The notes under the pieces are model-generated. The model was given only the letters and a program-made list of their open reading frames with translations. It made no database searches and was not told the DNA's origin. DNA of 63,922 nt, filler included, from Diploschistes diacapsis (lineage: Eukaryota), in the NCBI GenBank assembly GCA_023645945.1. It is 10 parts of 10 records of this genome, joined end to end, with 100 filler letters (N's around TTAATTAATTAA, not from the genome) between each part and the next. Parts side by side here need not be neighbours in the genome. Positions count along the whole stretch, not along the records: positions 8,352 to 12,417 come from JALAIB010001785.1; 9 more parts are not named here. One strand, given 5' to 3'. Shown one piece after another: positions 7,721 to 59,675 of the stretch. The position numbers and the translations under genes are program-made. Numbering within the stretch: position 1 is the first letter of the stretch; each line of letters starts with the position of its first letter.

Positions 7721-8540
7721 AATCAAGGACAAGAAAGAAGGATCCGCAAAAGAAAGACCGGGATGCAACATTGAAAAACGGCCGCCCGGGGGTTCTGCTA
7801 CAAGCTCGGAGTCATGGATTCGGTCCAGTGGCTCTGTTCCGATCTGGCGAATGTATCCAGGCACCAGCACCAGTCCCACCCAGCCCGCATGATGCCATTG
7901 ACTCATATCTAGGCTTCCAGCAATATGAACCAAGCATCACTACAGCAGCAATCAAGAACTCTTATGCGTCTCAGAACCTTTACTCCTTGGGCGCTTGTGC
8001 CTTTCAACCGCCCCCACGCTAAACAAAGTTTTGCAACTACCCTGCAAACTCCGTTATCGGCAAAGGTTCTATCCCGAGAGCATTTCCTACAGGCAGGACA
8101 ATATTGTGATGCAGTCTACACGTACATGTCTGGAAGGTCTGATATCAGCATTAGGATATGTGAGCTACATGGGGCTATCTCATCAGGGGCCAACATGGTC
8201 AGAACGGCACGCCGTGGGAGGTGGTGGGATTGGAGTGGCACCGAACCGGGGNNNNNNNNNNNNNNNNNNNNNNNNNNNNNNNNNNNNNNNNNNNNTTAAT
8301 TAATTAANNNNNNNNNNNNNNNNNNNNNNNNNNNNNNNNNNNNNNNNNNNNATTTTATAATTATTATTTATTTTTTTACGATTATATTAAAATGTTTTTT
8401 ATTTCGATAAAATACGCTCGCTATATTAAGTCTAATTAAAAGAATTATGTTTCTATTACATAAAAGGTAATTAAACGGACCATTCTTTCGAAACGAGACG
8501 AGATCGAAAAAAATAAAAAACTTATCGACGAAAATGATAA

Positions 8541-8775
8541 TATAAACTCAAGGCGCGCTGTCTAGGGAGACTTCCCTTGCTGTAGTAGGTAGGTAGTCGC
8601 AGGTGATGTAGTAAGGGAATGTAGTGTGATCTCGTAGTCAACAGCATACCTAAATAAGACATTTATGAAATATAGGATGTATTTCTTGTCTAGAACTACC
8701 TAACAAGCCTCCTTAAATAAAGCTGCCCTATAAAGACCACCCCTACCAAATCTACGGCCTACTTTTATGTTTACA
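8541..8775 (-). mobile_element. 3' LTR (235 bp) of the Gypsy-type element
   Basis: On the minus strand the polypurine tract AAAGGGGGGG (8790-8781) is followed after 5 nt by TGTAAAC...GTTTATA (RIP form of GTTTACA). Confidence 0.8.
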
Positions 8776-9289
8776 TACGACCCCCCCTTTAATAATTCGC
8801 TATCTTATAGCGAACTCCATACAAGTCTTATTAACAAGAAATTTCTATCCCTCTATCTCTATACCCTAATATAGTCCTATACCTCTCCGATAACTAAAAT
8901 ATCTAAAAACTTATTATCCTTAACACTCTTTTCTCGACGTAAACGTGCTCCTGGACTTATCCTTCTATATTCCACTCTCCAAACACAACTAGATAGAAAG
9001 GCGGTACCTATCTAAAGATATCCTTATCTCCGATTATATTCATATCATCCGTAAATATTCCGTCCGATAAATATAATTAATAACACGTCTTACAACCTTC
9101 TTCCTCTTCCTTCACCTTCCTTCCTCTCGTCACGACCAACAAGAATTCAATTATAAATAAATATATAGAAAAACAAGCAAGCAAGCAAATCACATAAAAA
9201 AACAAATAAACAAATTAAACGAAAAAGCAAGAATACTATAAAACTAATAAATAAAATAAACAACCGCGTAAATAACAAATAGTTCCCTA

Positions 9290-12222
9290 TTATAGGCCCT
9301 TAAAACCTTATAATACTCATTCCGACTTCTAATTATATAACCTTTAACCAAAACGGTTCCATCTTTCCTCAAATTTTCTCTATATTCTTCCCTCTTTATT
9401 TACAATCTAAATATCTATAAACTCATCTTTAATATCTAATCCTTAATTCTATTCTATACTTATTCCTCTATAAAATCCTTTCCGTTTTTTTTCTTCTTAT
9501 CCTTTCTAGACTCTATTTCCTCTATATTTAAATCAAGGTTATTTACTTGATCTTCCTCCTCGTCCTCTTTTTCATTTAGGTCTAAATCCTCGTCCGGAAA
9601 AAATACTCGTCTTAAAATCTTTTAAAAATCGGATTGCGTCTATAATAAAATAACGAAAAAATTCTTCTTCTAAACATTAAAAGCGAAATACTCCCCTTAA
9701 CGCATCGCTAAATAATATTCTTCAAAACCCTTAAAAACCTTAGCCACCCATTTCCTAAAATAAACGTCCCTTATCTCTAAATTAAAAATCTATACCTATT
9801 CCTTTATTACCGCTGGATCAATCCAGCGACGTCGTTTCATTAGCGTATCCGAAATTATTCCTAACCTAATAATCTACGTCGCTCCAGCGAAGACGTAAAG
9901 GATCCCTTTATGTATATTATATAAACCGGAAGGCGAGGAAAATCCGAAAATTAAATCTTTATATACGGCCGAAAGCTACTCTTATATACTAAAAACAGCA
10001 ATATCAAGCTAAAAATAATCTTATTAAACTCCGACATACCAAGATAAGATAATTCTCTTTACGCGCTTAAACTTCTATACCTTATAAAATAACTTTAACC
10101 TAAAGATCCTAACTTCGCTTCTATTATAAGATTAAAATACGAACTTTATCTTGATATCTTTCTCCTTTTAAATAATCCATATCTTACTATTAACCGTATT
10201 GACTAAACCGTCTTTCAACACGATCTCTCCCGCCCTCTACTTACGTTATAATTCTTACCACCAGTCCTAAATTCTACGATATATTCCTAATAAAAGCTAC
10301 GTACAGTCGTCGTCCTATTCATAATCAATAAAAACAGATCCTTAAATAATATTGATTCCATATCCTTCCTTCACCAACCGTCGGATGTTACAGTCTATAT
10401 ATCGGAAATACGTCTAATCTCCAAGCTCTTAATCCTTGCAGTAATAAAAGTAAGAAACCAACCACTTATTATAATCAGGACGCAAAGCCACGTACAATAA
10501 ATAATATATAAGGCATTATCTCATTACCTACTACACTTCAGAATAAAACATGATCCGATTTCAGCCCAAGTTAGGCTATCCGCCACGCTCACGAAGATGC
10601 CATTTATACATAACGAATTCAGCCTCGATCATAATCATGAAATCCAACCCACTTAATATACCAGATTCGCTAGCTCGTCCGTTAAAAAATTAATCGAAAA
10701 TACCACCCACCATAATACTACCATCTCTATTCCAATCTTACTTAATCTACAAGCTTAATCCGGCTACGTTAAATAGACCTACCGAAGTAATATCATCCTT
10801 AAAATACTATAAGATCTCCTTATAGTCCAAAAAATCCATCTTTAATATTAAAATAAAATACTTATAATTACCTAAGTTGTCCGAAGATCGCGCCGATCGA
10901 CTATCCTTTTTAAACATTTAATACGTCTTATTACTAATTTTCAATTACCTTATCCTAAACTCATCCTTATAAATCCAGTACAGTTTTGTTATTAAAATAA
11001 TTCTATTTCCTTACCTATTCTTAAGCCCTATAGCTCCGTATATAACCCTTAAATACCGAAAACAAAAAAAACGCTCGCGATCTTTAGATACAAAACTTCT
11101 ATACTATCGCAGAACCTTTTTCTAAGCAAGATACCTTTAATTCAGGATAATATATAATTTCTTTTCTTACTTACAACCGCAGTTCTATATTCCTAAACTG
11201 GCGAAAACCATCCGCCTAACTTTCATAATAACTGATACAGACGTAACAGGTAAAAAAAAACTGCCGAAAACAATAGTTCTAAAGTTCTCCCGATCACAAA
11301 ACCCTGAAATCTCCTACTCAAGCTCGATAACCACGGGTTCAATTAACTCAACGCCTTCGCTAAATACCGAGGAATCTCTAACCGCTAACAGAAAGAACTA
11401 TTTATTAAGAATTACCGATCTACGCGCTCCATCTTCTTCTATAAGTAAATTAAGGTCGACCGAAATGATTAAATCCGGTACAATATTTAATCGAACACGC
11501 CGCAAATCTATACCAGAAGTCGCTAGCTTGTTTATTATAAAAATAAATTATTCCGTTATTATCATAATATCTTTACTTAACGGACCTAAGATATCTTTAA
11601 TATACTTAATCGCCTTCTATATATCCGAAGTTAGCAACACTCGAATCTTATATACCCCTATAATAATTCCTTCAAGGCGAGAGGTCATTATATTAGCCAA
11701 AAGTTTCTAAATTAATTCAACATATCCATTTATTAACGTAATAAAAACACTTATTATCTTTATATAAACCTCGGGAGATCCGTATATATTTTTAAAATAA
11801 ACAGATCTTACAAGCTACTCTCTCTATAATTTACTTATTCTTTCAATGGCGTTACCGGTGCGTAATAATTTTTATTTATAACTTCGTATAAATTCCTTTA
11901 CCGATTCTTATTCTTCCTTATATACGACTTCTAAAACACCCGTCGTAATATATAAACTCTCTTTTTCAATCTCTTTAACCAGTTATCCGAAATAATTTAC
12001 CGTTAAATAAACCGTTACCTCGATCTTAGTTCTTACTTCATAAATTAAAGAATATCTATTTCTTAAAGACTACTCCTTTACATAATTAAAAAAACTTTTG
12101 ATAATATTAAAGCTACTTCCGTTTACCATTACGATCGGGATTTGATAACTATTCGATTATATATGGTTTCTTAATAGCGCGAAAAGTTGAGGAATTAATA
12201 AAAAAAGTGTATTATCAGCCAT
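9290..12222 (-). pseudogene. RIP-mutated retrotransposon cargo ORF, PhyH-like 2OG-Fe(II) dioxygenase (copy 1; 3' end approximate)
   Basis: Collinear with 21532-24264; reads LLYVALRPDYNKWLVSYFYYCKD*ELGD*TYFRYIDCNIRRLVKEGYGINII*GSVFIDYE*DDDCT*LLLG, with stops being TAA/TAG as expected from CAA/CAG/TGG under RIP. Confidence 0.72.
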
Positions 12223-12517
12223 ACTGAATCTTTCTAAAGATGACTAAAAGGGCAGGTTAACAGATTATATAATTCGAAATTAAGTTTTTTAATAACCGAT
12301 TTATGTTCGTCGTTAAATATAATCCGTATCGTCAAAATCAATTAAGATTTAACGACGGGAGATATTACGTGCTATCTTATGATATCAAACAAAATCTTAA
12401 TGCATATTAATGTCAAANNNNNNNNNNNNNNNNNNNNNNNNNNNNNNNNNNNNNNNNNNNNTTAATTAATTAANNNNNNNNNNNNNNNNNNNNNNNNNNN
12501 NNNNNNNNNNNNNNNNN

Positions 12518-13316
12518 ATATAATATTTTAAAAATAATTATAGACGATAATACCCCGCCAATAACTAAAATATATTCGATCGCAATTACTCACTTTTGTT
12601 TTCTTTTAATAACTTTTTAATTCGAGCCTGTTCGACTCGAAACGAAAGCTTTAAAAAAAGAACTATTATTAATATTAAAACTTAACTCGTTTATATTATA
12701 GATATATTCGGGCGCGTATTGCCCTTTATTATATTAAATTATTATTATATCGAATCACCGTTATATAACCTCGTAATTTATCGTATTAAATTTATTCAAT
12801 TCGATCTATCTCGTCTAAATATTAATAATTTTAGAAAATCGTTTGCGAAATCGCGATACCTAATTTTTATCGATAGATTAAAGATTCGCGATTATAACTT
12901 TTAAATTCGAACCGAATTGAATTCTTTCGCGTTAAATCTTTTCGGCCATTTCCACCACCAACGTAAATGATGCAGGAAAGCCAGTTTATATAAAACGTAT
13001 AATCTATCGTACTAATATCTTTTCTTTAAGATTTAAAAGGATTTAATTTAATTCGTGATTATTAAAACGTGATTATACTTTAATAAATCGACGCATAATG
13101 ATTAAACGAGGAACTTTAAATACGCGGGCAGCTTCTCGAACGTTAATATATTATTAAAAATTTAAGGCCTATAAACAATCGTTGATATTAAATTCTATTA
13201 AAATCGAATTATTACGATACGAGGTAGTCATTATTAAAAAAATCGAAGAAAAAGATGAAAGTTGTAATGAGAGGTGGCCCATTTCTGGGGGTGGCCCGGT
13301 TCCCCGTCAAACACGT
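12518..13316 (-). mobile_element. 5' end of a Fot1/pogo (Tc1-mariner superfamily) DNA transposon, RIP-mutated
   Basis: TA|ACGTGTTTGACGGGGAACCGGGCCACCCCCAGAAATGGGCCACC terminal repeat; from ATG at 13231 a degenerate HTH region (NVREAARVFKVPR...GFPASFTLVVEMAEKI). Confidence 0.8.
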
Positions 13317-13318
13317 TA

Positions 13319-16300
13319 TCGATAATTACTCGCGAAAAACCTGGTCTATTCCTTATAAAACTCGGAAGGATGTTATTCGTATTCTATAATTCTGGAAAGT
13401 GAATACAAAGTTCTAAAGCGGTAAATAACTAAAAACGGTGCGTTTCGATAATATACTTAAACTAATCTTTATAATCGAGGATTGAGGAAGAAATTTAGGA
13501 GTTCAAATGGAATCGATAGTATTATACACGTTAAACCAAAATGGCATTACCGAAAAATTTATATAAATTACCGAGATAAATATCCGTGCCATGCTTAAAG
13601 GAACGAAATAAAGATACGCTTTCTAGAACGAAGTAGTATTGATTTAATGCCATATCCGAAATAAAACAATAATAAGATTTAAACTAAACGGTTTAATCGC
13701 GACGCCTACCGAGCATTAATTAAGCGAAAAGCCGTTAATAAATAATATCCGTATCTAAGAATCAAGATACTATAATTACGTAAATATAATTGCAATTTGT
13801 ACGAATCGAGGAGGATATCCGCTCGCTATGAGTGTCCGCTCGCTATGCATATACGTTATATTAATATCGATAAATAATATAAGATTTAAGTATTCGATAT
13901 TTAAAAGATCATTAAAACTAATTCAGTCAAGTTTAAAAAGAATAAGACGTTTATTTTTTAAAAATTAAGATTATTTAAAAGTTATAAAGAAAACGATAAC
14001 GTAATATTTATCCGAAAGCCACCGAGACGTTCAGCCAACGATCTAATACTTAATATTGAAAGTATTAACGACGGATCAATTACCCACGTTAACGACGGGT
14101 CAGTTACGCACGCCAAAGACGTATTAACGATAAAGATAAAAGTTTAGTTAAACCATACTAAACCTTCACTATTTGTTTCTACTAAAGATCATAGTATTTT
14201 GGAAGCCCCTGCTCCCGTTCCTTATGATTAACCTGAGCCAGATAATGATGGCCGACAATTAATGAAGAGGTTCTTGCGGGTTGAGGTTCTAAGAAGAAAG
14301 ACTGAACTTGAATTTATTGAATTAGATGCACCGAAGCCTATTGCGTTAATAACGGGTATTATATACGTTATTAATAACCCGATTACGTATATAGTCTTAA
14401 TTAACGCCACGTTAACAACGTCTAATATACAGGATTCTTAAATAATAAACGATATAAACGACGTTTTAATAATTATAATTATTTAAAATATTAAAAAGTT
14501 TTATAACACGAGTTCTATTATTAATAAACGATAGCGGGATGTCGAACATTTTTTATCAATTAAAATATTAAAAAGTTATATAACGCTTATAATTAATAAA
14601 TAGGAGATAACGAGCGACGTCGGTTCAAGATCGACGCGTATTAGTATCTTAAGAAATTATAAGGAAGCCGTGAATGATCCGATCTTCGGATAAGAATAGG
14701 AAGTAATAATAAAGAAAAAAATCGATTTTTTATTATTAAATTAAATCTACATTGAATTACTTGAACTATTTAAATCTATTAATATTATAAGTTTAAAATG
14801 GGTTTTCGATATTAAGTATAATCTTAATAATAATATTAAAAGGTTTAAAATTAGATTAGTCGCAAGAGGTTTCTCGTAAAGATAAAATATCGATTTCGAC
14901 GAGACATTTGTTCTTATTATTCGAGCCGATTCGCTACGAATTCTATTAACGGTTATAACAATTAAAGATCTAGAATGTTATCAAATGGACGTCAATAATG
15001 CGTTTATCGAAATATTATTAACGTATTAGATCTACATAACCGCACTAGATAGATATAGCGTTCTAAAGGGCACCGTATTTAAAATTAATAAAAGCTTATA
15101 TAGGCTAAAGTAAGCGGCCAAAGATTGGTATAAAAAATACGGCAGTATAATCCTGAATCTAAGATTCGTCCGATCTAATGCTAACCTATACGTCTTTATT
15201 TTGCGAGATCGAAAGCTACTGGTTAGCCTTTATATAAACGATATTATTATAGCAGCACCGGACCTACATGATATATGCTGATTTAAAAGAACACTGGCTG
15301 AACGCTACAAGATCAAGGACCTAAAGGAGATAAAAAAGCTCTTAGGAATGAAAATTCAGCGACAGCGCAGTTCAGGTTTAATAGATTCAGCTAAACTGAC
15401 CCTAGATCAAAAGATATACGTCGAGAAGATACTCTAGCGTTTCAAGATGATAACGGATACATATAAAAGCTAAAAGATACCGCTTAATAAATACGACGAT
15501 ATTAAATTAAATAAAGAATCCTCGGAAACAATTAATAAAACGTAATATCAAGAAATTATTAATAATATCATACATTTAACGGTTTATACGAGACCAGACA
15601 TCGTATTTACTATTAAAAAGTTAAGCCAGTACATAACTAACCCATACATCCACTATTTATATGTTTTAAAGGAACTACTCCGCTACATTCGGAAGACAAA
15701 GGATACTAAAATTTAATTCAGTTTTAAACCTAAACTTTCGAAATTACGGAAATACTTCGATATAGATTATAAAAGAGATAAGTCAGATCGAAAGTTTACG
15801 TATGAACATATCTTTCAATTATACGGTGGATCAATATCTTAAATAAGCAAGAAACAGAATTCAGTTTTAACGTTAATTATAGAAACTAAATATATTGATT
15901 TATCTCATACCGCTAAACAAGCCTTATAATACTTATAATTTTAAAAAATATTAATTATTTTGATTTTATAAGAATATTTCTATATACTATTAATTTACTC
16001 GGTAATAATATTGGTTCTCTAAATTTAATAAAGCACGTAAGGATTAACGATCGTTTAAAACATATCGACATTATTTATCATCACGTACGAAATCTGGTTA
16101 AGTAGGGACGTATCAAGATATCTTATATTTTTATCGATAAAATGGTTGCTGATAGATTTACGAAACCACTAAATTACTCGAAGCACGACGACTTTATTAA
16201 GAAACTCTGTCTAATCTAAAAGATATTTAATTAAACTATGTAATCATACCGGACGATTCCGCCTGTGGGGAAATATTGAGTAGATAGATAAAAGATATGG

Positions 16301-16488
16301 CTAAAAGTTTAATTAAGTTCTAGAAGGAGGTTTAATTCAGTTGAACCTCCTGGAATCCCAACTAGACCGGTTTAGGAATAGTGTAGGTAATAGGGCTTAA
16401 CGTATCCCATAAGAATAAAAGTCTGCAAAATAGGATAACCTCCTAGATAGACCTCTAGACTTCAATATATCCATTACGTTGCCAAACA
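13319..16488 (+). mobile_element. Ty1/Copia LTR retrotransposon (integrase-RT-RNase H plus 3' LTR 16274-16488), RIP-inactivated
   Basis: Copia domain order, with degenerate motifs NQNGI(A)E, KWVFDIKY, FK(A)RLVARGFS, QMDVNNAF, SLY(G)LK(Q)A, LY(VD)DI, KHIDIIYHHVR, MVAD(G)FTKPL; purine tract GGGGAAA before an LTR ending GCCAAACA. Confidence 0.92.
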
Positions 16489-16989
16489 GAATCGTCGAAA
16501 CATTTTTTTAATTTTTTATCGATAATCCTCGAATATCCTGGTAGAATAGATTAAAATATCGTTTAAATATAAAATAACGTACNNNNNNNNNNNNNNNNNN
16601 NNNNNNNNNNNNNNNNNNNNNNNNNNTTAATTAATTAANNNNNNNNNNNNNNNNNNNNNNNNNNNNNNNNNNNNNNNNNNNNTTGGGGCTAGTGAAGGAA
16701 ACATGGTCTAGGAAGACGAGCTTGTGTGCTACTAGTTCTGTCAGCCCCGCCCCAAAAGCCCCACTTTTTCACAACTGTGGGTTGACAATGTTTGATTCCT
16801 ATTTTGAGGCTCGACTGCAAGCCGCCCCATTGTTGCTGGAGATTTTGGGGGCTTGCAAGCAAACATGGTATAGAAAGGTTGGCATGGGTCCATCTAGGGT
16901 TATTAGCCCAGCCCCAAAAGCCCCGGTTCCACAACAGTCTGGGTGTAGGAATGTTGATCCCGATCTTGAATGCAGCCCCAGTGAATATG

Positions 16990-20846: not shown

Positions 20847-21200
20847 GTATTATTTTATAATAGTAGATATTAGGAGGATTATTTTATATTTCGAAAATTG
20901 AATTTTTGGTAACTCGGTTTTTACCGAATAACCTATTCGGATCATAAGAAGTTAGTATATAAGTTTATTAAACTAAATGGAACGGACCTTAATAGAACCT
21001 TTGTAGGCAGAAGGTTAAAGGTCTTTATTACTGATTTTAGAAAAGAAATGATAGTGCCGGATTCTAAAACTACGGGTTAAAAGGATAGGGATAGATCTAT
21101 AGAAGAAAAAAATATCGATAAGGATTTAGATGATAAAGTTCCTTTTAATCTTTTAAGAAAGTTTATACCTGCGGGGAGGGATTTCGCGGTAATGATTTAG
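20847..21200 (+). mobile_element. 3' end of Ty3/Gypsy pol (integrase C-terminal region), RIP-mutated
   Basis: Reads VLFYNSRY*EDYFIFRKLNFW*LGFYRI...VYKFIKLNGTDLNRTFVGRRLKVF, which de-RIPs to the fungal Gypsy tail VLLHD...KLxFxWLGPYRI...YxLxELDGT.L.GTFAG.RLK.F; TAG at 21198-21200. Confidence 0.8.
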
Positions 21201-21531
21201 GAGATGGGTCCTTTTATTGTTATAAGGGAGGGAAGGGTTTAGTTGAATTCTTAATAAACCCTTTATGAAATTAAAAAAGAAGATTAGAAAATTTTTTTTT
21301 GTAACATTCTTTCCATTCGGCGTTTAAGATTCTGTGATTTTGTGTACGTTTTATCCTGCTAGAGTTACTGTTTGATATGCGTTGAAAGCTTATGGTATTT
21401 TGAGCTTTGCTTGCTTTACCTTCTTATTTATTTCTTGTTGTTTTGTCTTCCTGTTTGCCTTCTGAGATCTTTATTTTAGGACCCTGCTAGTTGCGTTTAG
21501 AGATCTTATTGAACTATAAATTATCGTTATA

Positions 21532-24264
21532 ATGACCGAAACTACATCTTTCGTACCAATATCGAGTTCCTTCTCTCCCCTGGTTCTATTAAGAAGTTAT
21601 GTTTAAATTAAAAGCTATTAAATATTAATTGTATTAATAGATGGAAGTAGTTTTAATACGATAAAGAATTTTATTAATTATATAAGAAAATAATCGTTAA
21701 AGGATAGATATCTTTTAATTTGCGAAGTTAAAATTAAGATTGAGGTAATAGTCTATCTTACGGCCGATTACTTAGAATAACTCGTTGAGAAGGTTAAAAA
21801 AGAGAGTTTATATATTACAATAGGGGTATCGGAAGTTAATTATGAAGAAAAATAGGAATCTATAAAGGAACTTATAAGAAACTATAGATAAAAGTTATTA
21901 TAAGTTAGTAACGTTATTGATAGAGTTAGTAGATTGTGGGGGAAGTAGTTTGTATTATCGGCGTATCCGGGTGAAGTGTACGATTCTTTAGAAATTTATG
22001 TTAAGTTAATGAATATTTTGGTCACGATGGTAAATAGGAACGTGAAATTAACGTAAAAACTTTTAGTTAATATAATAATCGTTCGCCTCGAAAGAATTAA
22101 GATCGAAATATATAAGATTCGAATATTATTAGTTTCAGATGTGTAAAAGATAACTAAATATAAAAGAAATATTTTAGGATTTTTAAATAAAGGTATTATG
22201 TTAATTTTAAAACAAGTTATATTTATGATAAATAAGCTAGCGTATATTAAGATAGACTTACGGCGTGTTGGATTAATAATTATATCAGATTCCGTCGTTC
22301 CGATCGACTTCGCCTTAATAATAGAAATAAAAAGGAATCAAGTATTAGTTATAAACAGGTAGCTTATTTTGTTAGAAATTAGAAATTCATCCGCGATTAA
22401 TGAAAGCGTCGGATTCGACCTTATGAATATCGATATTAAATAGGGGATCCTAGGGTCTTATGATTAGGACGGTCTCGCGTTCGGTTTTGGTAACCTTCCG
22501 TTTCTTATCGTGTTTATAGGATTTATTGTAATGAAAGTAAGGAAAATGACCTTCGTAAGGATGCACGGTTATGGATATAAATAGGAAAAGAAGTTATATG
22601 TTATCTTAAGTATTAAGAATTTAGGATAAAAGGAGGTTTTGTAATAATATAGAAATTTTATTTTTAAAGAACGTGAACGCTTTTTCTACTTTTCGTACTT
22701 GAGGGCTATATGCGGGGTTATAGGGCTTAAGAATAGGTAAAGGAATAGAATTATTTTAATAATAAAGTTATATTTGGTTTATAAAGATGAATCGAAGATC
22801 GGGGTATTAAAGACTGGAAACCGAATTTATTAGTTATTTCGAAAGGATAATAAGCTAACACGATCTTTAAACGACCTCGATAATTATAAGTATTTCATTC
22901 TAATATTAAAAGTGGATTTTTCCGATTACGATAAGATTATATGGTACTTTAAGGGTGATCTTATTTCGTTAGGCATTCTTAATACAATTAAATTAAAGTT
23001 ATAGATAAAGTAGGATTGGAACAGAGATAATAGTATTATGGTAAATAATATCTTCGATTAGCTTTTCAATGGACGAGCTAACGAATCTAACGTATTAGGT
23101 AGCTTGAACTTCATAATTATAATAGATGTAGAATTCTCTATGTATCAGTAATACTTCCGTAAGCGTAATAAATAACCCAATTTGGATTAGAATCGTGCAA
23201 TGTTCCATTTTAGGGTGCAATAAGTTATAAAACAGTGTCTTATATATTACTTATTATATGTGGCATTACGACCTAATTATAATAAATAATTGGTTTCATA
23301 CCTCTATTACTGCAAAAATCAGGAACCGGAAGATCAAACCTATTTTCGATATATAAACTACAACATCCAAAGACTGGTGGAGAAAAGGTAAGGAATGAAC
23401 ATTATTTAAAAATCTATCTCTATTAACGATAAATAAGAAGACGATTATATATAACTCCTGTTTAGCATACATCGAAAGATTAAAAAATAATAAAAAATAT
23501 TATAACACCGGTAGTAAATTAGAAAGATAGTTTTGAAAGATGGACCTATCTATACCGTTAATAACAAGATATGGACGGCATAGGATGAAAAAGATACGTA
23601 AATAGTATTTATATTTTAATCATATAATAAGAAAGACGTCAAGATATTTAGACCTGAGTTATCTCACGGGACGCAGAAGTTTAAGCGCGTAAAGAGGACC
23701 GTTTTATCTTGGTATATGGGAGTTTAGAAAGACTATTCGATGCTTAATATTGCTGTTTCTGGTACGTAGGAATAGCTTTCTATTACGTATAGAGATTTAA
23801 TTTCTGATTTTTCTTCGCCATCGGGATTATATAATATGTATAAAGGGATCCTCTACGCCTTTGTTAGTGTTATACCGATTACTAGATTGGGAATAATCTC
23901 GGATGCATTGGTGGAACGACGTCAGTAAACTGACCCGGCTGTAATGAAAAAATAGATATAAATTTTTCGTCCTGAAATCAAAAATGTTTATTTTAAGGAA
24001 TAAATGGTTAAGGCCTCTAGGGATTTTAAAGATTATTATATAACAATGCGCTAAAAAGAATATACCGCGTTTCACGATCAAGGTAAAAGCTTCTTCTCAG
24101 TTCTTATAAAAACGCAATTCGATTACTAAGCGGTATTGAGGAAAGCGCTTTTTCCGAACGAGGAGGAAGAGGAGGAAGAGGAGGTGGAAGAAGAGGAAGA
24201 AGAAGTGGAAGAGGAGGAAGAGGAGAAGGAGGGGGAAGGAGAGGAAGAAGAAGAGAAGGAATAG
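21532..24264 (+). pseudogene. RIP-mutated retrotransposon cargo ORF, PhyH-like 2OG-Fe(II) dioxygenase with Glu-rich tail (copy 2)
   Basis: One frame from ATG 21532 without frameshift, interrupted by RIP-type TAA/TAG stops; inferred HxD at 23350-23358, intact distal His codon at 23665-23667 (EL(P)HG), KRTVL(P)WY strand, poly-Glu at 24160-24261. Confidence 0.75.
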
Positions 24265-25003
24265 GTAGCGTGAGGGGAAAAATAAATATTATAAAACCTT
24301 AAGGACCTATAATTATGATAAGATAGAATAAGATAAAGTCTATTTATTTATTTATATGGCCGTTCGGCTGTTTGCTGGCTGGTTAGTTTGTTAATTTTAT
24401 AATAGACTTGCTTTTCTACTTATTTATTTAATACTTATTTACATATTTGCTTGTTTATTTTTTTATGTGATTGATTTTTTTGTTTTGTGTTTTCTTGCTT
24501 GCTTTATGTTTATGTATTGACCTGCCTGTCTGCCTCTTGCTTGCTTGCTTGCTGCCGCTTGTCTGAGAGGTGTGATCGGAGAAGAAATAAGAGAGAAAGG
24601 AGGGCGGCGGACGTGCTGTCTAATGTAATTGTCTAGAAGAATACCTATGAATAAGATAGATATAACGGAAGTTAAGAATGGTTTTGGATAGTTATCGCTT
24701 TATTATCTAGCTAATAAAGCGGAGTATGATATAAATACGGTAGAAGTTAAAAATATTTTTAAATAATTACCGCTTTTTTGTCCTCGTGATTCGAGAGAAT
24801 AAAATGCAGAAAATTAGATTTAATAACGCTGTTACGTTTAAGAACACTGTCACGTCGAAAAGGAAGTATTAAAGAAGATAAATTTCTAAATATTACCGTT
24901 GCTNNNNNNNNNNNNNNNNNNNNNNNNNNNNNNNNNNNNNNNNNNNNTTAATTAATTAANNNNNNNNNNNNNNNNNNNNNNNNNNNNNNNNNNNNNNNNN
25001 NNN

Positions 25004-26742: not shown

Positions 26743-28277
26743 TCATTTTTCAAGGAAAGACTGAATCTTTGTAGAGTCTTTTGTTGAGATATAGTAAGAG
26801 CCACCCTCGTTGGTCCAGCTAACGCAATTAGAGAAATACCTCTTCCTATCCACACACAATATGTTATAGGGAGAGTTCAGGTTTCGTGAAGTAATCCTAT
26901 GATCCGAAGGGACGAAGGACTTTAGCGAGACCACACGGCATCCTTCTTTCAAGTCCAGGAACAAGTTAGTAAGGGCCTCATTAAGCTCCGGAGTAAAAAC
27001 TTGATTATTGACCAAAACGGCATCCGCCCTCTTCAATACCTTCTTGATCGCTGGGTTATCGAGAAAGTCACCCTTCTGGAGCCGAATCCTCCCTAGCGAC
27101 AGTCCCCAGAGCCGACATCGGGCCGCGAATTCAGCATGCTGGAGGTTTGCAACCCTACAATATTCTTCCATCATTTCACAGCCCCAGCTATCACAGCCAA
27201 CTTCAAGAGCGGCTTGGAGTACCACGTTGCCAACTCCTGAACCCAAATCTACAAAAATGTCGCGCGACCTTAGGTTGAGATCCTTGTTCAAGATGCAGGA
27301 GATAAATTTGGGTAAAAGTTCCCCATAGACATTGTCTGTTCCCGCTTCGTACTTCCGTAGTACTTTGAGATTTGGTGACACTGTACGGCTGTACGTCTGA
27401 TTCAGTATACGTTCCACGAGATGTGGAGGGATGGTGTGTCGTCCATCGAGAACAGTTGCAATGGTCCCTTCCTGCAACAAGGCTACTAGCGTTGCATTGT
27501 ATTCGTTGATGACCTGTCTGATATCATTCACGGACCTTTTGTTCACTGCCCTTTGTAACCTTTGAGGGAAACCACTGCTCTCGTCCAAAAAACCAACTCG
27601 TTTCACCTCGGGAAGATAGAAGTTAGCGACTTGGTGCATGACCTCCGTAATATCGGAGACTGCCCGGAAGGCATGATAGTCATGAATTGGTTGAATTAAA
27701 CGGTATCTAAACAATGATCAGAACGTTTATACCAGTTTTGCCAACCTCTGGCAGTTTACCTTTCCCGTTGCAGAGCAGAGGGATACTGCAATTCCAATTG
27801 AAAATCATCTGGGAGACTAGCGATAACTGGCTCATATTTTGTCCCTCTATCTAGAGTGGGTATTTCGGCAGCATGCACCAGAGCAACATCCTCGGAATGC
27901 TGTATGGCAAACGCTTGTTTGCAGCGAATCTGGCGATCGGCGTCCCGTTCCTCTTTGGCCTCTAAACGGGGTTTTTTGGGAGAGCATTTGGGGCCGTCAT
28001 CGGATTCACTAACTTCCCTGCCAAACTTGACAGGCTGCGATGTCGAATTTGCGCTTTTTATTTTTATCGCTTTGTGTTGAATGGACGAATTGGAAATAGT
28101 CGAGGGCTTCGAGATCTCGGACTTCAGCTGCTTCTTGACCAGCTTTCGTTCTGTTTGAACAGCTTGCACGGTTTTTAGTTCCCCATTCCAATTATATGGC
28201 GAGGCCGCGTCTCTTGTTCTGATTGTGCGTTTCTGGATATCCAAAGGGCGTTTCTTACTTAACCCATTTGTGAACAT
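26743..28277 (-). CDS. DOT1: Histone H3K79 methyltransferase (1 intron, about 27706-27759)
   Basis: VYGELLPKF, FVDLGSGVGNVVLQAALE, GCEMM, VLVNNQVF, CVSWT; basic N-terminal region. Confidence 0.95.
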
Positions 28278-29909: not shown

Positions 29910-32900
29910 TCAGTATGGCGGCTTTCCTAACACACCGCCGCCACCAGCACCACCGCCAATTCCAGCCACACCCGCCCGGTCGACATTAACCTCGATCGAG
30001 CCCAGCAGCGCCCGCACCATCGTCCGTCTATCCCCAGCGACGGCAGCAGCAGCAGCAGACTTCGAGCTGCTCCTGTTCCCCACGCTACTTCTGTTGCCCA
30101 AGCTGTTTCTACCTATGCTCCAGTCCCGCTCCCGCTCCCTCTGCAAAGCCGGCTGGGGCGGTGGGGCTGTCGCTGTTAGCGTCGCTGCAGCAGAGGTCGC
30201 GCTTGGCAACGGCGTGCTTCCCACCGCACCTCCATCAAACCCTGTCGGACTGCTCACCTTCTCAGTAGCAGCAGGGGCTGCACCAGTAGCCTCCGGCTTG
30301 ATCTTCGCCGCAATAGCCGTCTGAAACTGCGGTGACTGGGGGTGCTTCGCGACGATGCCCTCCGGCAACGGTGGCACCGGTGGCACGCATTCCTCGCCGC
30401 CCGCTACACCCCTCCCCACCACTGACGGGACGAACTCGCCCTTGAGAGCCTTCGCGTTGGCTTCCGGGTCTTCTGCGCTCGTGGAGCTGGAGGACCGGGC
30501 GCGCGACATGCGGCTGGGCGGACGGTTCGCGGTGTCGTGCGATTCCGGGCGTGCACCGGCACCGCTGAGCCGGCCGCTGGCGCCACCGTCTGTTTCGTAC
30601 GAGCGCCGGCCGAGCTGCTGCATATATTGCTCTGCGATCTCTTTACTCGACACGGGGCTCTGTGGGACGGGAAGGGCGTGCTCGGGATCGCCTTCCGAGG
30701 CGGACTCGAAGCCCTCGGCGTCCATGACGCTTTCGCTTCCGGTGGAGATGATGCTGGGACGGGTGATAGTTCGGCCCAGATAGCGGTCTTTGCCGGCGTC
30801 GGAACCGAAATCTTGGTAAGCGGTGCTGCTGTTACGGAGGGGCGAGCCGTTGCGCGGACGCCCGTGCTGGGAATGCAAGGCGTCGGCGAGGGAGCCGCTT
30901 GCTAGGACGCGCTTGAGGTCGTCCACGCGTAGGGTTTCGATGTTCTCGGCGTCGCTTACTGGGGTGTGAGGGCCCGAGCCTTGCGCGCTGGCGCGACGAA
31001 GTTTTGAGGTTTGGATGCCGACGGGAGTGCCGCAGAGCCCTTTTTGCCCTTCTAGGACTGCGGCAGCTGGGGAAGCATCGCGAGCGTGACCGTTTGCTGC
31101 CAGTAGGCCGTTGTTGTTAGAGTGGGTGGTTCCGCTGCGGGAGCCGTGGGGGGATACGGTGCGTGCGGAATCTTTCTCGATGCTTGCGATGCAGGCCTCT
31201 TTCGTCCATCTCGACAGTAACATCTCACGGAAGGCTGGCGGTAGTTCTTCGATAGGGCCACGTAAGCCCATAGGCGATGCGATGGGCGATATCGCACCGC
31301 GAGCTGGAGACTGAGGTGGGCTTGAAGGTGCCGACGATATCGAGTTTGAGTAAGCAATCGATATCTGATTAACCATTGCAGCAACGTTATCGAACCGTTT
31401 CAGCGACCCTTGCCGGACCGTTCGCTCCGGTAACAGTGCGCTCTGTGGAACCGATGAAACAATTAGATGCTCCAAAGCCAAGGAAGGGAACTGCAGGCGT
31501 TCCATCCACAAGCCAGCCCTCTGTCGCCTGCTAACCTCGCTCTGAATCTCATACCCCGGCATAGTCGTTTCAAACTCAAATATCTTACTCAAGCATAGAT
31601 AATACCCATGAACGAGGCTTCCAACATTCACTTTCGCTTTCGGTGTTTTTAGAACAGTGTTGATATCTTCCTGTAGTCGGACAAGCACAGGTAGACCGCT
31701 CTTCAAGGCGTTCACGCCCAGCCTTTCAACGAGCGAAGTCAGAAGAAGATTCATCAATAGAATATCGGAATCATTCTCGGGCGCTTCCAGAACATTGTCG
31801 TAAACAGCCAAGTGCAGTAGCTGCAGGAAGGTCGTCTTGAGGGGCTGCGCCCTACTACCGCGTGAGGCGTTCGAAGCAGCTCGTGCGATACTCGTTCTTT
31901 TCTTCAGCTCCTCCTCCCCCAGCGGCTTGTTCTTTTTGGACCTGGGCTTATCCTCCATAATTCGAAGATCTTTCTTGTTCAGCTCCAAGTGCATCCACGT
32001 GAGCAGAGCATCGACATAAGCTCTTCGAACCCTGCGGTCTTCGTCTCGCAGAAGCCACTGCGTGCCTTCCCATACCCTAACTCCGACTTTGTTCCTTCCC
32101 ACTGCGCCAGCGCCAACCGTTGCTCCACGCTTGTTCGCGATGACGAGAACTTCCTTTACAGCGTTGAGAGCCGTTACCCTGGCAGTTCCGAAAGAGAAGA
32201 ATTCGCTCCTCGTCGGGTCCTCCTTCATGTTGGCAGAATCAGAAATCGCCTGAGCCGCAGCCGCAGGCCTCTCGATCGCCGCAGTGGCAGTGGCTAGCCC
32301 AGATGCTGGTGAAGGCTTCAGTCGAAGAAGGATTGCCGTCAAAATATCAGAAATTTGGTCACCATAGTAAATGTGGGTAGCAAGGTTAGCGATGCAATTT
32401 TGCAAGCAGCTCAGAAGTTCTTGCCTCGCCGCCGAAGGGGTCGAAACCTTTTCTTCGACCATTTCCGGACCAGAGTCGCTTGGAGAATTATAACCAGCAA
32501 TAGCAGTTTCCTTGAACAGATCGATTGCACTGGTTTGTTGGTGATGTGGAAGGACATTCGTGCCCTTTCCTCCCAATTGTAGCAGGATGAGCACGTGTTG
32601 TATGAGGCCCAGCAGGATGTCCATGACGCTTAGTCCAATCATGTTTATAGTAGAGCCGAGTAACCATTGAATCAATCGGCCAAGAACCAATTGGTTACCC
32701 ATATTATCTTCTGTAGTTGGGCTTCTCACCAAAGTCTCCATGACAGTAACAACTATTATGAAGCGGTCCTGTACGGGGCACCATTCGGTGACCATCTCCG
32801 TCAATTTGATGGCCCAATTTCCCTTCAGCGCGGACCTATTCGAAGTGGCCGTCCCAGGCCTTGCAATCAATGACTTCCGCATGAAAAATTTGAGTATCTC

Positions 32901-33852
32901 AGTGAAGGCCAGTCGGATCAGCGTCCGGTTGTTAGCTGTAAATATCTGTTTGAGGCTCTGTAGAGCCAGCATAGCAGCCTCTTCTTCGGCCACACGATCA
33001 GCTTCAGCAGTGGTTTCGGATACGGGAATGTTTGTAGAATCCGGGGCTGGCTCCGTCGTGCGGACAGTATTCACACTCGTTCGCCTTCGGCTTCCAGCCT
33101 CTTTCTCTGACCCTGCTTTTTGGTAGAGAGATACCAGAGTTTCGTCGCTATCGGCATACAGGTTCTCCAATATGACCGGCACAATTATTGAAAGCTGTCG
33201 CCCGCCATCTGCGCCGGTTGCCTCCGATGCACTGATACTCTTGATTGCCTTTAGCCCTGCGGATTTCCAGCGTATGGCGATTGGGGGGCTTAGCGGAGAT
33301 TTGGGTGTTCCCTGAGGCTTACTTGCGAATGCTGCATAGCTCTGTACTATCTGCTCGTACTGCTTGACAAGCGCCTGATCTGCGGTCAAAGTCGCAATGT
33401 CCTGATGTTCGCAGAAAGTCTGGAGAGTCGGCACGGAATCTTCGACCATTCCAATATCCTTGGATTTCATAACCATAGCTAGGATGCGGAGGACGTAAGG
33501 TGCATACAGAGGCAGGTCGCGCGGAGATTTCTCGACCATGGCGCGGATGATCTGCAGAGTGACCTGAACGTTGCTATAGACGATCAGCAAGCAGCTTCAC
33601 CGAATGGGCCCATTATCAAGAAAAGACTCCAACCTACCCAATTTTTCCCCGGGAGACATCACTGCTTGTTTTTTTCTCCAAAAATGCCCCAACTTTTTGT
33701 ATCTTGCTTCGCCTGGTGCTTGCATAGTATAGCAAGTAGCTGAGCTCGCTCGAGTTCGGCTTCACTTCCGCAACGTTCTTCTGGTACCTAGGATAACATT
33801 TCAAGACCAAGACCTGATGCTTCGGCCGCATCGACTGACGGACTGCGTGCAT
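29910..33852 (-). CDS. EFR3: Efr3, plasma-membrane scaffold of the PI4-kinase complex (1 intron)
   Basis: RPKHQVLVLKCYP...KPNSSELSYLLYYASTRRSK, NVQVTLQI, GLSVMDIL, LATHIYYGDQISD; ends KPPY*. Confidence 0.92.
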
Positions 33853-35166: not shown

Positions 35167-37273
35167 TCATGCTTGGTTGGACTCCATGCTTCGTATCATT
35201 GCCCGTTCGCGAATGCCCTTCTCTTCGAGATCCAGTTGCTGGATCGCCCTCCGGCAGTCAGAGCGCTCGAAGGCCAAATTTTGGGTTTCCAACTTGTACC
35301 ACCCATCATGTTGCTTGCATCGCTTCCTCTGGCAAACGCCATGCCCGATTTCCTCACCATTATCCGTCGCTCCTTCAACCATTTTCGTGTCTCCATCGGC
35401 GTCTGGGATTTCCGTTGCGGGAGCAGAGAGTATTCGGTTTTGCAAAGCTTCCTGCCCCGCTGGGGACGACCGCCACTCGTCGAATTCCTCTTGCGACCAA
35501 CGGATGCGTTTGTCAAATCCGCAAATATCCTTGGTGTTCTTTTCTTTCTTTTTCAGTTCATCGAGGACGGTCTTGGCCCTTGCTCTAATCATTGTGTGAA
35601 ATTGCTCCCTATCGTCAAAAGATCCGAGTTCGTGAGCTAACTGCATCTTCCTATTGGAGATCTCTTCCAGCCGCTCCGTTTCCTGGTTTGAGAATGCTGG
35701 AGAGGGTTGGTTCTGGTCATTTGCTTCTTTACCTAATGTCGCATCCGACGATGCCGAAATAGCGTCGCCCAAGCGTTTGAATTGCTTGATATCGTCTACG
35801 CTACTTAGCAGGCTCTTGATTTCTCCTGGTAATAGGTAACCTCCTCGAAGGTGGGGGGGCTCCTGTTCATCCTCGTTGCCGATGTGGTCAGTATAATTCT
35901 CTCTCCGTCTCTTCCTTGCCGGTGTGTCTGCTGCTGCTGATTTGCTAGCTCGATTCACAACCGCTCGGTGCATGAACTCGATTCCGTGCTGGTCGCAACA
36001 GTATTTGGATGGATGTGGTCCACCAGCACGAGCAGGATTGCGACAGCCTTCGAGTCGACACATCGGTTTCCATGTGGTTTGAATGGCTTTATTGGCGGTA
36101 CAGTTTGGGCCTGCGAGAAGTCAGAAAGCGCAATTCACAAATGTCCCTATCCTTACAGATAAATTTGTCGATCAGTTCTTCGTCACTCTGGTCCATATTC
36201 ACGCAGCGGCCATGGAACCAATCCTCGCAACCGCCGTCGCAGCCAATCATCCACGTATGATCATCAGGCTTTCGACAGATACAGAACAGCTCGTTTTCCG
36301 AGTCTCCTTCATCATCGTCTTCGCCTTCGTCCTCGACAGCTGGTGGTGAGCTGTGCGCTGGCGTAGCAGAACTCTGTTTTGTATTCCTGGAAGCCAAGGG
36401 TTTGCTTGAATTGGGGGTACCCGAGCGATGCGACAGTGGAGTTACTCCTCTGCTGTCCACTTCCATCTTACGCTTTCTAGCCGTGGGTTTCTTGGCAGGT
36501 TTCGTATTTTCTTTGTTCTTCTCAGACTTTTGCGTTGTTCGGGATTTGGGACCTTTATTAACCGGCGCTTTGGGACTTGGGGCTGTCGCAGGCGATTTGG
36601 CCATCGTTGGCGTTGAGGCTTCCTGCTTGACCGCGCTTGTCGCATTTTCTTTCGACAGCTTTGAATCTTCGCTAGCAAGCTGGTCTTCTATTGATTGCTT
36701 GACACCCTCATTGCGCAACAACGCGTTCTCCGACTTTGACTTCTCTTTTTTCAGCGCAGCTACAGGCGGAGGTTGTGCGATTTTCTCCATGTCCCTTACG
36801 CTTGTTTCTTCGACTTGAGGTGGGTTCACCGGATCTTGCGAGGTCTCCAACTTATCACTATCTCGAAAGCCGCTCGAGGCAAGTTTTTTGTCAAACGAGC
36901 TATCAGTGTCGAGTTGGGTATGCGCATTTGGTGGTTCAGGCTGGTTGTAAAGAGAATAGGAGACTGGTTGCGCAGGAGAGTCATTCGGTTGTTGTAGATA
37001 TGGATGATTATGTGTTGTCTGCGACAAATGGTATGAAGAATGGCGATGCTGGTTCGGATTGGGTAGGAAGGTGGGAGGGTTAGCGGCGTTGGTTAAGCTA
37101 GGCTCAGCAAAGCTCGTTGTCGCGGCAATGGCTAGAGCTTCTAGAGGAGACGTGATCGACTGATTTCGATGATGGGACTTCGATTGCCCGCCGCCATCGC
37201 CGGAAATTTCAACCTTCTGGCTTTGCGCTGTTGATGATGGTAATGGATTGAGAAGGTCGGAGAGGCGCGACAT
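35167..37273 (-). CDS. SPP1: COMPASS/Set1C PHD-finger subunit Spp1 (1 intron, about 36111-36156)
   Basis: PHD finger FCICRKPDDHTWMIGCDGGCEDWFHGRCV...FIC|PNC, then MCRLEGCRNPAR, SKYCCDQHG, ICGFDKR, CQRKRCKQHDGW. Confidence 0.88.
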
Positions 37274-37755
37274 GTTGCGCGGTGGGTTGGGTGAGATGAG
37301 AGGGAGTGGTCCAAACAGAGCTCGCTTGCAGAACAAGTCTCAATCATACATGTGAATGCGTGAGTGCGTGTAAGTATCAAGTATAGAGCCTATGGTAGCA
37401 CCTAATGAATTCGAAGCGGGACGCACAGAAGAACGAGGAAACAGTTGACTGGCAAATGCGAAGCTGGTTTCTACTGGATTGTACCGTAAATTGAGGTGAT
37501 CCGTTTTTCTTAGGGTGATGGTGGGGGGGACAAAGAATTCGCGCCAAGAAAATTGAATAGGAGGATCAAAATACTTGCTGTCTCTTGTTATATATTTTTA
37601 TTCGTACTGGTACAGAAGAAAGAAAGAAGGAGACAGAGAGGGAGAAGAGGCCTTGAGTGCAATGACTATTATCTTTGCTGATATTTATCCACGAGCATCA
37701 CAATGCTAGTCATCAACAACGATGTGGACGAAGCTCGCCATCGTTCCCAGACGCC

Positions 37756-52550: not shown

Positions 52551-53318
52551 CTTGATGGCCCAGAGGAAGTTCAGGCAGGGCGAGTTCGAGTGTTGCGAAA
52601 CGGGACGAGAACAAAGAACAGGACAAAAGGCGAAAGAAGGGGGCAAGGGTGGGAGTTCTTGTACCGCGTATCTCCACGAGCTCGATCAGATCAGATAGAT
52701 TAGCGTAGGCCAAGAGGGCTGGACCCCGACTTCAGAACCTCCCCCCCGTATCAGTTTGGACGGACGTGGGTATCCCAAAGCGTGTGGATCTCTCGGACTG
52801 GCCTGATACAGAGTACGCTGGGTAGGGTGGGGAAATGCAATAGGTGGGTATTTGGTCTGAGATTGGGGCCCAGAAAGTGGTTCAAACCCTCTGGGAAAAC
52901 AAGCTGCAACCCTACTGGCCTGTTTGCGATTGGTGAGTGCAAATAATATCAGCAGTCGAGAATAACAAAAAGGATAAGAATGGAAAAAAAAAGTAGGAGG
53001 ATTGTTCCTCCGCACGAATACGGCCGCAACCGGGGGATTTTCCAGCCTGTTGTTCGTGCAGAGACTGGGAGAGTTTGTTTGCTCCGTGAATGCTTGGACG
53101 CCGTTATTCACCCACTGGCCCTTTCCCGAGCATTGTTCCGTATGTTAGATCACTTTTCCAATATTCACACCTCCTCAGTCCAGATGACTTTGAGCTTCCC
53201 GGTGCATCGTGGTGTCGCCTCCATTATTCTCCTGCCTCCACTTTGGATGTATAGTTGCTAGTGCACAGAGCAACCGAGCAGGCCAGTACCGATCGGGCAA
53301 GTTCTCTTGCTTCGCGTA

Positions 53319-53347: not shown

Positions 53348-54242
53348 GCGCGCGTATTGGTGGCCAGCTAATAGAAGTTAGGGAACCGAGGAGCTTCAAA
53401 ATCCCAATCCTGCCATTCCCCCCATTCCCCCCCCCTACCTCCTCCTTGGCCAATCGTGAAGGTGTTCTCAGCCGGCCAGCACCAACAGACCAGAAGTTCC
53501 AGGTTATTCTCAATTGGCTGAATAACTGCTGATGGGAGGCCTATCCACCTTCCAGAACGTAGGATGTACTGTTTGCAACCTGTTCGCTTGGCATCGTTTA
53601 GCACCAAGTTAAATTGTAAGCCATAAGGATAGGTGCAACCTCGCGAGCCACTCGATCTGGAGGCATGATAAGCTGGACATTCTCGAGACACTTCCAAGAG
53701 ACGGCTGGCCATGTGAAACCCGAGTTTTTGAGGACAATTTGCCTAGTTGCTACCGTTTGCAGACCCTTTTGGAGACGGAGTAAGGAAGGGGAAAAGTCCA
53801 TGTCAGTCTTTATCGCTGCTCAACTGTTAGCTCACCTCAGTCTCTTTAGCGCATTAATCATTTAAGGCTGTCTTCTATACTGTATTATACTGTACTGTAT
53901 AATCCAGCTACGCCGTCTTATCAAAGGCTTTACGTCACTTTCATATACTTCTTTGCTGGTCTGATTAACGACATCCTTCTCATTCGACCTTGCTTTACTG
54001 ATAGCGTCCCTCACTTCATATTAGCAAGAGTCTAAGAGCCAAGGGATGAGGCGATGGTCGTACTGTGCGGGTTATCGAGATAACTGAAGTAACTGTGGCA
54101 GCAGGCGTCATTGAATCCACCCGTCACAAGATGGATCGCCGCCCGAACAGAGACAGTGGCCACGTGCTCTTGCCGAGTCTTACGCGGCTTTGTCATATCG
54201 TACTGATTATTACCAAAGTCTGATAATGATAATGATAAGTTA

Positions 54243-54435
54243 ACGTATTCCACTAGTCAGTGACTAACACAAGTCAGTGACTCACTTGTATCTCTCATAC
54301 AAAAATACATGTGATGGTACTTAATTGTCGCTCTCCGCTCTCCACGTGATTATTACGTACCATCATATGTATTTTTGTATGAGAGGTACAAAGTGAGTCA
54401 CTGACTTGTGTTAGTCACTGACTAGTGGAATATGT
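54243..54435. mobile_element. MITE (193 bp), Fot1/pogo-type
   Basis: TA on both sides; about 78-bp near-perfect TIRs starting ACGTATTCCACTAGTCAGTGACT, each with a duplicated AGTCAGTGACT. Confidence 0.88.
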
Positions 54436-59477: not shown

Positions 59478-59675
59478 ACGTGTTTCACCACGAAACGGAA
59501 CACCCCACGAAGCGGAACACTACATTATAATGTAATTGCGCTAGATCGAGCGCTTCCATATTTGTACGAAGCTAAATCTGTTTTCAACTACACTACCCCG
59601 TTCTTCGGCCTTTTTTTGATTACATTATATGAGTGTTCCGCTTCGTGGGGTGTTCCGTTTCGTGGTGAATCACGT
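59478..59675. mobile_element. MITE (198 bp), Fot1/pogo-type
   Basis: TA on both sides; 44-bp TIRs ACGTGTTTCACCACGAAACGGAACACCCCACGAAGCGGAACACT with one mismatch, extending imperfectly to about 60 bp. Confidence 0.9.

Follow-up and report, generated by a model that had tools for sequence, protein, structure and literature searches.

The stretch of DNA analysed here, called the window throughout, comprises 63,922 nucleotides of Diploschistes diacapsis (assembly GCA_023645945.1) and is made up of short contigs with N spacers between them; the assembly from which it comes amounts to 29.1 Mb in 4361 contigs. Two of the contigs in the window carry diverged copies of one long open reading frame (ORF), here designated ORF3, which occupies the env position, behind gag and pol, in a Ty3/Gypsy long terminal repeat (LTR) retrotransposon with the layout LTR-gag-pol-ORF3-polypurine tract-LTR. 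Copy A (12222-9460, minus strand) belongs to the dead 3' half of such an element, on a contig (8352-12417) that is AT-rich (GC about 0.32) and depleted in CpA/TpG, and copy B (21532-24264, plus strand) represents a different allele type. Both have been disabled by repeat-induced point mutation (RIP). The genes present, together with the RIP signature, suggest a filamentous ascomycete as host. Their features are as follows.

8537..8540, minus: 4-bp target flank TTAT (NTAN pattern)
8541..8775, minus: 3' LTR of copy A, 235 bp, starting TGTAAACA and ending TTTATA
8776..8790, minus: polypurine tract, abutting the 3' LTR
8791..9459, minus: 3' non-coding region of copy A, from ORF3 to the LTR
9460..12222, minus: ORF3 of copy A, some 920 codons, killed by RIP; its 3' end is approximate, since RIP may have made the stop that closes the frame beyond the tail
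9823..10782, minus: predicted PhyH/DUF1479-like Fe(II)/2-oxoglutarate dioxygenase domain of copy A, about residues 480-800
10393-10401, with a distal His near 10085: catalytic sites of copy A (HxD and distal His), both His codons now TAT
10783..11190, minus: Cys/His region of copy A (CxC..CxxH), a putative zinc site
11473..12165, minus: N-terminal all-helical domain of copy A, as predicted from the model of a homologue
12223..12417, minus: part of the pol-ORF3 spacer of copy A, up to the contig end; it matches 106 nt of the contig L023 spacer at 75% identity
20847..21531, plus: copy B, integrase tail at the 3' end of pol (as far as about 21200), then the pol-ORF3 spacer; 78% identity over 685 nt to contig L075
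21532..24264, plus: ORF3 copy B, 910 codons, 48 stops
23350-23358: HxD site of copy B, both residues mutated; the distal His and Arg codons are kept
24265..24903, plus: copy B, non-coding sequence 3' of ORF3; the contig stops short of the LTR

Copies of this repeat elsewhere in the genome sit on contig pieces of 1-4 kb, none of which carries a whole element. An integrase lies upstream of ORF3, in the same direction, on contigs L075 (where the frame includes the integrase zinc finger and core), L023 (where it precedes the spacer that matches that of copy A), L020, L027 and L085; further upstream, other contigs encode RNase H and reverse transcriptase (RT) collinear with the pol of intact Gypsy elements. 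Contig L082 is collinear with L162 and L104, two relatives in other fungal DNA, from RT through integrase, and the pol of D. diacapsis matches that of L162 at E 9e-79. The Pfam integrase match in the D. diacapsis copies is sub-threshold only; intact relatives match RVT_1, RT_RNaseH and Integrase_H2C2, in the pol order RT, RNase H, integrase, and give no match to a chromodomain. With integrase upstream and a polypurine tract and LTR downstream, ORF3 thus stands as the third gene, where env would be.

The 235-bp LTR ends exactly at 8541, and most LTR loci examined have a polypurine tract like that at 8776-8790. The genome holds 86 exact matches to a 21-mer from the LTR end, by which the LTR sample was drawn, and 58 to an 18-mer from the LTR start; among 30 LTR starts, 27 run into one shared internal sequence, two are solo and one is the 3' LTR of copy A. 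A conserved sequence starting with TGG, a candidate primer-binding site for a host tRNA, lies just after the 5' LTRs. The terminus TTTATA is one RIP-type transition away from the inverted counterpart of the TGTAAACA start. The pattern NTAN follows 28 of 30 LTR ends and precedes 29 of 30 LTR starts, the remaining start being preceded by a polypurine tract. A clean 4-bp duplication (ATAT on both sides) flanks the solo LTR L190; the flanks of solo LTR L196 are mismatched (CTAG/ATAG), as are those of the candidates L052 and L068. Duplications of 4 bp also flank relatives in other fungal DNA (L104, CTAC; L153, TTAT; L166, CTAG), and intact relatives have both LTRs on one contig, which is the case for none of the D. 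diacapsis contigs. Other repeats are found with these elements: a small element of ACACGG-containing repeats has inserted in or beside several Gypsy copies (L026, L060, L087), and some ORF3-bearing copies (L047, L051, L059) have themselves inserted in sequence resembling window 12518-16582, a RIP-mutated plus-strand frame with motifs that we take to be those of a Ty1/Copia reverse transcriptase.

Selection and RIP damage in the two copies

A sequence-only reading of this DNA had described the contig of copy A as the reverse-complement homologue of that of copy B (20847-24903), collinear from the ATG through the acidic tail and beyond, and BLASTN confirms it: positions 9587-12177 align with 24164-21586 in one piece of 2604 columns at 68% identity. 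Its further statement, that the frame lines up codon for codon despite transversions and unlike acidic tails, also holds. Each copy has a single frame from its ATG (12222, minus; 21532, plus) through the tail, which is poly-Glu in B and a mixture of Asp/Glu with Lys in A, and in the protein-guided alignment all gaps are of whole codons (3, 1, 1, 1, 1 and 2 codons); a free DNA alignment has non-triplet gaps in two places, in short pairs (7+2 and 2/5) that leave the frame intact overall. Homology continues 3' of the ORF, where 15 of 21 gaps are non-triplet, as expected of a non-coding region. A fourth small ORF considered for this 3' region is unsupported, given these gaps and the lack of any tblastx match in 80 metagenome loci (the best 80 of 365 confirmed matches).

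RIP yields transitions only, so that transversions can be used to probe selection that predates it. Over 763 well-aligned codons (the gappy residues 1-20 and about 252-345 and the tail being excluded), transversions between A and B at codon positions 1, 2 and 3 number 46, 18 and 109 (chi-square p=4e-17), and where positions 1 and 2 match, third-position transversions are found at 27 of 101 four-fold codons versus 23 of 342 others (Fisher p=3e-7). The ratio of nonsynonymous to synonymous differences, counted on transversions only (pN/pS), is 0.045/0.254 = 0.18. By region it is 0.21 in the N-terminal domain, 0.45 in the linker, 0.21 in the Cys/His module, 0.12 in the catalytic domain and 0.25 in the C-terminal helices, so that selection was tightest in the catalytic domain and loosest in the linker. 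The earlier reading had itself called for a test of transversions at synonymous sites and of indels in multiples of three, and the ORF passes it.

There are 53 stops in the first 901 codons of A and 48 in B, all except one TAA or TAG, and comparison of A with an unmutated fragment elsewhere in the genome gives 72 C>T versus 6 T>C and 49 G>A versus 32 A>G, a spectrum such as RIP would give. At 34 of 35 positions with a stop in both copies, some other copy holds CAA, CAG, TGG or CGA; these Gln, Arg and Trp codons imply that the stops arose after the copies diverged. The sequence context of the mutations, judged for A and B against L041:4454-5020, is broad, with CpA, CpT and CpC mutated at about 45-65% and CpG at lower rates of 25% in A and 44% in B. 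Two short, stop-free ORF3 fragments of normal GC (L041:4436-5065 and 8761-9216, G000:C3919) lie 4 kb apart near ordinary genes and have escaped RIP.

The ORF3 protein and its homologues

A profile built from the two copies finds 659 representatives at E <=0.001 and 88 at 1e-30, the full-length ones being about 850-1000 amino acids long. Those with a named organism are hypothetical proteins, nearly all from filamentous ascomycetes of several classes (Penicillium, Rhinocladiella, Onygenales, Sclerotinia, Coleophoma, lichen fungi, Xylona) and one labelled Sphagnum; two with no organism attached are labelled PhyH. When 34 homologues were compared with Pfam, two passed the gathering score of 22 for PhyH (PF05721; 36.1 and 22.5 bits), eight fell below it (one at 21 bits) and 24 had no PhyH match, and none of the 34 matched a TET/JBP or AlkB-type family; the two window copies have no Pfam match at all, PhyH included. 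Across 58 homologues, H617 and D619 (within an FRHxD motif) and R732 are at least 90% conserved and H722 is invariant, as are C370, C373 and C416 of the CxC..CxxH motif, with H419 nearly so. Both window copies have lost iron ligands through RIP-type changes, and each ligand is kept in some other D. diacapsis copy. At these sites the copies in this genome hold the conserved residue or a derivative reachable by transitions alone, except for L014 (distal His site), L043 (HxD sites, in a degraded frame) and L044 (Cys/His sites).

A structural model of the homologue P0004 (mean pLDDT 79.8, core above 90) has a helical N-terminal domain, a disordered linker and a confident core, and together with the sequence motifs it gives ORF3, at roughly 900 residues, a predicted architecture of helical domain, linker, Cys/His module, dioxygenase and acidic tail. 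The core is modelled as a double-stranded beta-helix closest to YbiU/DUF1479 (Z 19.3, rmsd 3.4 over 283 residues) and Gig2 (Z 18.1), then to the PhyH-type and metabolite enzymes EvdO1, KanJ, AsqJ, EctD and PAHX (Z 15-13); NgTET1 ranks 37th (Z 8.5), near NMAD-1 (8.3), ALKBH3 (8.3) and ALKBH6 (8.0). By predicted fold and motif, ORF3 is a member of the Fe(II)/2-oxoglutarate dioxygenase superfamily of the PhyH/DUF1479-like kind, and by its closest modelled structures and Pfam matches it falls outside both TET/JBP and AlkB. The N-terminal domain, modelled at pLDDT 85.8, has a best fold match of Z 5.8, thus no clear known fold (which does not imply a new one), and no match in a viral library at E <0.001. 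A sequence profile searched against PDB returned nothing below E 0.05, and Atlas matches to P0004, all below 0.9, fall in PhyH and Gig2-like clusters, one of which includes members from giant viruses, and are best taken as a lead. The 210-residue unmutated fragment P0003 had no match among longer proteins or in Atlas, blanks that are uninformative because the fragment precedes the conserved core. Pattern scans, which catch close relatives only, confirmed none of 46 candidates from IMG/VR viral contigs and none of 35 from prokaryote genomes. Early ideas of an endogenous mycovirus gene or a transposase were dropped after the profile search, the PhyH matches and the motif conservation. Taken jointly, the position of ORF3 in the element, its purifying selection, the fold and catalytic triad predicted in its homologues, and RIP damage after the copies diverged form a picture of which we are nearly certain.

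ORF3 types and their carriers

The sequence-only reading had spoken of two subfamilies that kept the ORF under purifying selection before RIP. The selection is upheld by the codon-position test, and the division into two subfamilies is not, there being at least six ORF3 types on elements whose LTRs and integrase are nearly identical. A protein search of the genome found at least 50 ORF3 matches (50 of 50 scored, from 113 candidates), and 34 ORF3 fragments of at least 120 codons (two of which overlap at one place) fall into 15 clusters at 2% transversions; six mutually overlapping types differ pairwise by 3.4-27% in transversions. L023, which is of the A type, and L027 differ by third-position transversions at 2 of 126 codons in integrase and 108 of 277 in ORF3 (p=7e-19), and the B type against the A type gives 6 of 141 for integrase and 40 of 279 for ORF3 (p=0.0014). 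Between copies whose ORF3 differ by 20%, LTR divergence is about 1-5%. The changeovers are sharp: L023 and L027 differ at 4 of about 600 sites and then at about 20%, L025 and L035 by 12-25% transversions inside ORF3 and then, immediately past the tail, at none of 450 sites, and L020 switches type within ORF3.

Such a combination is better read as old ORF3 alleles that have been recombined, probably between co-resident elements, onto one young LTR and pol backbone, and judging from these sequence comparisons we consider this very likely. The alternative, that these are separate, long-diverged subfamilies whose shared backbone reflects gene conversion, chimeric assembly or a tighter constraint acting on the LTR and integrase, seems improbable. 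It draws on the 4361-contig assembly with its repeats on 1-4 kb pieces, on the constraint to which LTRs are subject and on an LTR sample that required an exact 21-mer; the contrast nevertheless persists at third codon positions in both comparisons above, extends to the non-coding 3' region and, in L020, arises inside ORF3 itself. Of five integrase comparisons within the genome, four give a pN/pS of 0.13-0.21 and one was poorly aligned. Two points count against recombination: the junctions are seen in assembled contigs of a fragmented assembly, and the intact pair L104 and L105 has no mosaicism, with pS 0.041 in ORF3 and 0.043 in pol.

Homologues in other DNA are found with more than one kind of carrier. 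Among the 80 metagenome loci, 22 lie directly behind a Gypsy pol, five beside a Helitron PIF1 and five beside RecQ-type helicases. L104 has intact gag/protease, pol and ORF3 between 274-bp LTRs that are 100% identical (no RNA holder is listed for it), and the same gene order occurs in L105, which is also intact, and in L140 and L162; between L104 and L105, ORF3 has a pN/pS of 0.19 and pol one of 0.15. A quick, unfinished tree, in which the RIP-affected rows are biased in composition, places Gypsy-borne sequences in several separate positions and suggests that ORF3 may have been transferred repeatedly between element types. This is tempered by the 48 of 80 loci, many of them short and including the nearest intact homologue (L095-L097), in which the queries used recognised no carrier, by the Helitron and RecQ links being adjacencies only, and by the 22 Gypsy loci being mostly RIP-like copies of one family.

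Some of these loci hold further genes. Divergent ORF3 paralogues, apparently lacking HxD, lie near an intact one at L114:5010-8141 and L150:17498-19579, the order in L114 being paralogue, pol fragment, intact ORF. Three loci (L099:359-4195, L106:3197-7060 and L111) share a 1280-residue ORF with no Pfam match near the dioxygenase gene, on the same strand and upstream of it in two of the three, which may mark an undescribed element. In the window itself, inverted repeats of about 200 bp are present at 54237-54441 and 59476-59677 (85% and 71% self-complementary), tandem Ser/Thr-rich coding repeats at 45350-45800 probably belong to a cell-surface protein, and the host genes at 26743-27717, 29910-33596, 36089-37339 and 50118-52685 are presumably DOT1-, EFR3-, SPP1/PHD- and OPT-transporter-like, respectively.

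Function and comparison with known systems

The reading of ORF3 function that we prefer, while holding it no better than evenly balanced, is that the enzyme works for its element, not for the host. Its substrate would be a macromolecule in the nucleus, such as a methylated base or a protein of chromatin or of the silencing machinery, whose oxidation would weaken the silencing of transposons by the host. A role of this kind would account for carriage by elements with RNA and with DNA intermediates and for the persistence of divergent alleles, and the large accessory domains also speak for it; the TET/JBP enzymes of fungal DNA transposons and the AlkB enzyme of an orchid Gypsy element may be regarded, by analogy, as precedents. 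Several findings pull the other way. The nearest folds (Z 19-13) are those of DUF1479/Gig2 proteins, which are uncharacterised, and of PhyH-type enzymes acting on small molecules, with NgTET1 and ALKBH3 far behind, the catalytic domain of P0004 is not basic (K+R 10%, D+E 12%), fold searches with the N-terminal domain returned no known DNA- or chromatin-binding fold, and all near-complete copies seen in D. diacapsis are RIP-killed, so that ORF3 gave no lasting protection.

Most characterised PhyH-type enzymes are small-molecule hydroxylases, and ORF3 could be another, kept because it benefits the host lineage or alters a metabolite, for instance a modified nucleotide or the balance of 2-oxoglutarate and succinate. 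We think this unlikely: natural-product and metabolite enzymes are the best folds after DUF1479 (Z 15-13) and the non-basic catalytic domain would suit them, whereas the gene is kept by several unrelated types of transposon, no biosynthetic clusters were found among the neighbours scanned (45 long ORFs, on the longer loci), and some 500 extra conserved residues, in the helical domain and Cys/His module, suggest a large partner. It is more doubtful still that ORF3 acts on the products of its own element within the particle, by demethylating or repairing RNA or cDNA or by hydroxylating Gag. The env position in several Gypsy lineages would fit such a role, as would the orchid Gypsy ORF that, according to the accessible text of PMC9289625, demethylates N6-methyladenosine (m6A) in vitro; the ORF3 fold is not AlkB-like (Z 8.3 versus 19.3), and homologues also adjoin Helitron and RecQ-type helicases. 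Elements of these latter types are not known to have an RNA-containing particle. Recent or chance capture of a host gene never selected in the element can be set aside as having next to no likelihood, as the sequence-only reading had also held, since same-layout intact elements exist in other fungal DNA and the codon test refutes it (pN/pS 0.18 for element-borne copies, similar to integrase, and 0.19 for L104 versus L105), even if some homologues lie on megabase contigs with no carrier shown.

Returning to the counter-silencing reading, a broader and tentative proposal, to which we give somewhat less than even weight, is that transposons from more than one class in filamentous ascomycetes have in common an undescribed third family of dioxygenases that oppose silencing. 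These enzymes would be PhyH/DUF1479-like, unrelated to TET or AlkB, with chromatin or a modified base as their target, and in D. diacapsis old alleles of the family would have been swapped as cassettes on one Gypsy backbone. Such an exchange would resemble env swapping in retroviruses and is what an arms race with RIP or methylation would be expected to produce; the mosaic of ORF3 alleles adds a hint of evolution driven by conflict.

Four known systems invite comparison. By the accessible text of PMC12730594, TET/JBP dioxygenases occur in fungal DNA transposons and Helitrons, where a counter-silencing role has been proposed, and none were found in retrotransposons; ORF3 is likewise a predicted 2-oxoglutarate dioxygenase with several unrelated types of fungal transposon, but would belong to another enzyme family (Z 8.5 to NgTET1 versus 19.3 to YbiU), and its named homologues come from other classes. 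With the DUF1479/Gig2/YbiU and PhyH-type proteins (PDB 4rgk, 6akz; PF05721) it shares the modelled double-stranded beta-helix and the HxD..H..R residues, at Z 19.3 and 18.1. The ORF3 homologue is no more than 10-13% identical to these proteins, which are not known as transposon genes. The element itself resembles the non-chromoviral, Ylt1-like fungal Ty3/Gypsy elements in its RT-RNase H-integrase order and in the lack of a chromodomain match in intact relatives; the accessible part of PMC3248453 mentions no dioxygenase in those elements, and that of PMC13297926 does not mention the ORF3 family. A search of the full-text literature, outside which lay most subscription papers, supplements and Repbase, found no description of fungal LTR elements with a PhyH-like dioxygenase.

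The closest parallel in a retrotransposon is that of Phalaenopsis, in which, as far as the accessible text of PMC9289625 relates, Ty3/Gypsy elements carry an extra ORF for a recently acquired, ALKBH5-like 2-oxoglutarate-dependent dioxygenase of the AlkB type that acts as an m6A demethylase in vitro. Like those elements, the Gypsy element described here has kept a separate Fe(II)/2-oxoglutarate dioxygenase ORF, with its HxD..H ligands, through rounds of replication; unlike the orchid ORF, ORF3 is PhyH/DUF1479-like by its predicted fold (Z 8.3 to ALKBH3), is about 900 residues long with extra domains and is widespread in filamentous ascomycetes. ORF3 would thus add to these systems a dioxygenase family other than TET/JBP and AlkB, one that selection has kept in Gypsy elements of fungi and that occurs also beside other transposon helicases, and since intact members exist, the question of an enzyme directed against host silencing in ascomycete transposons is open to direct test.

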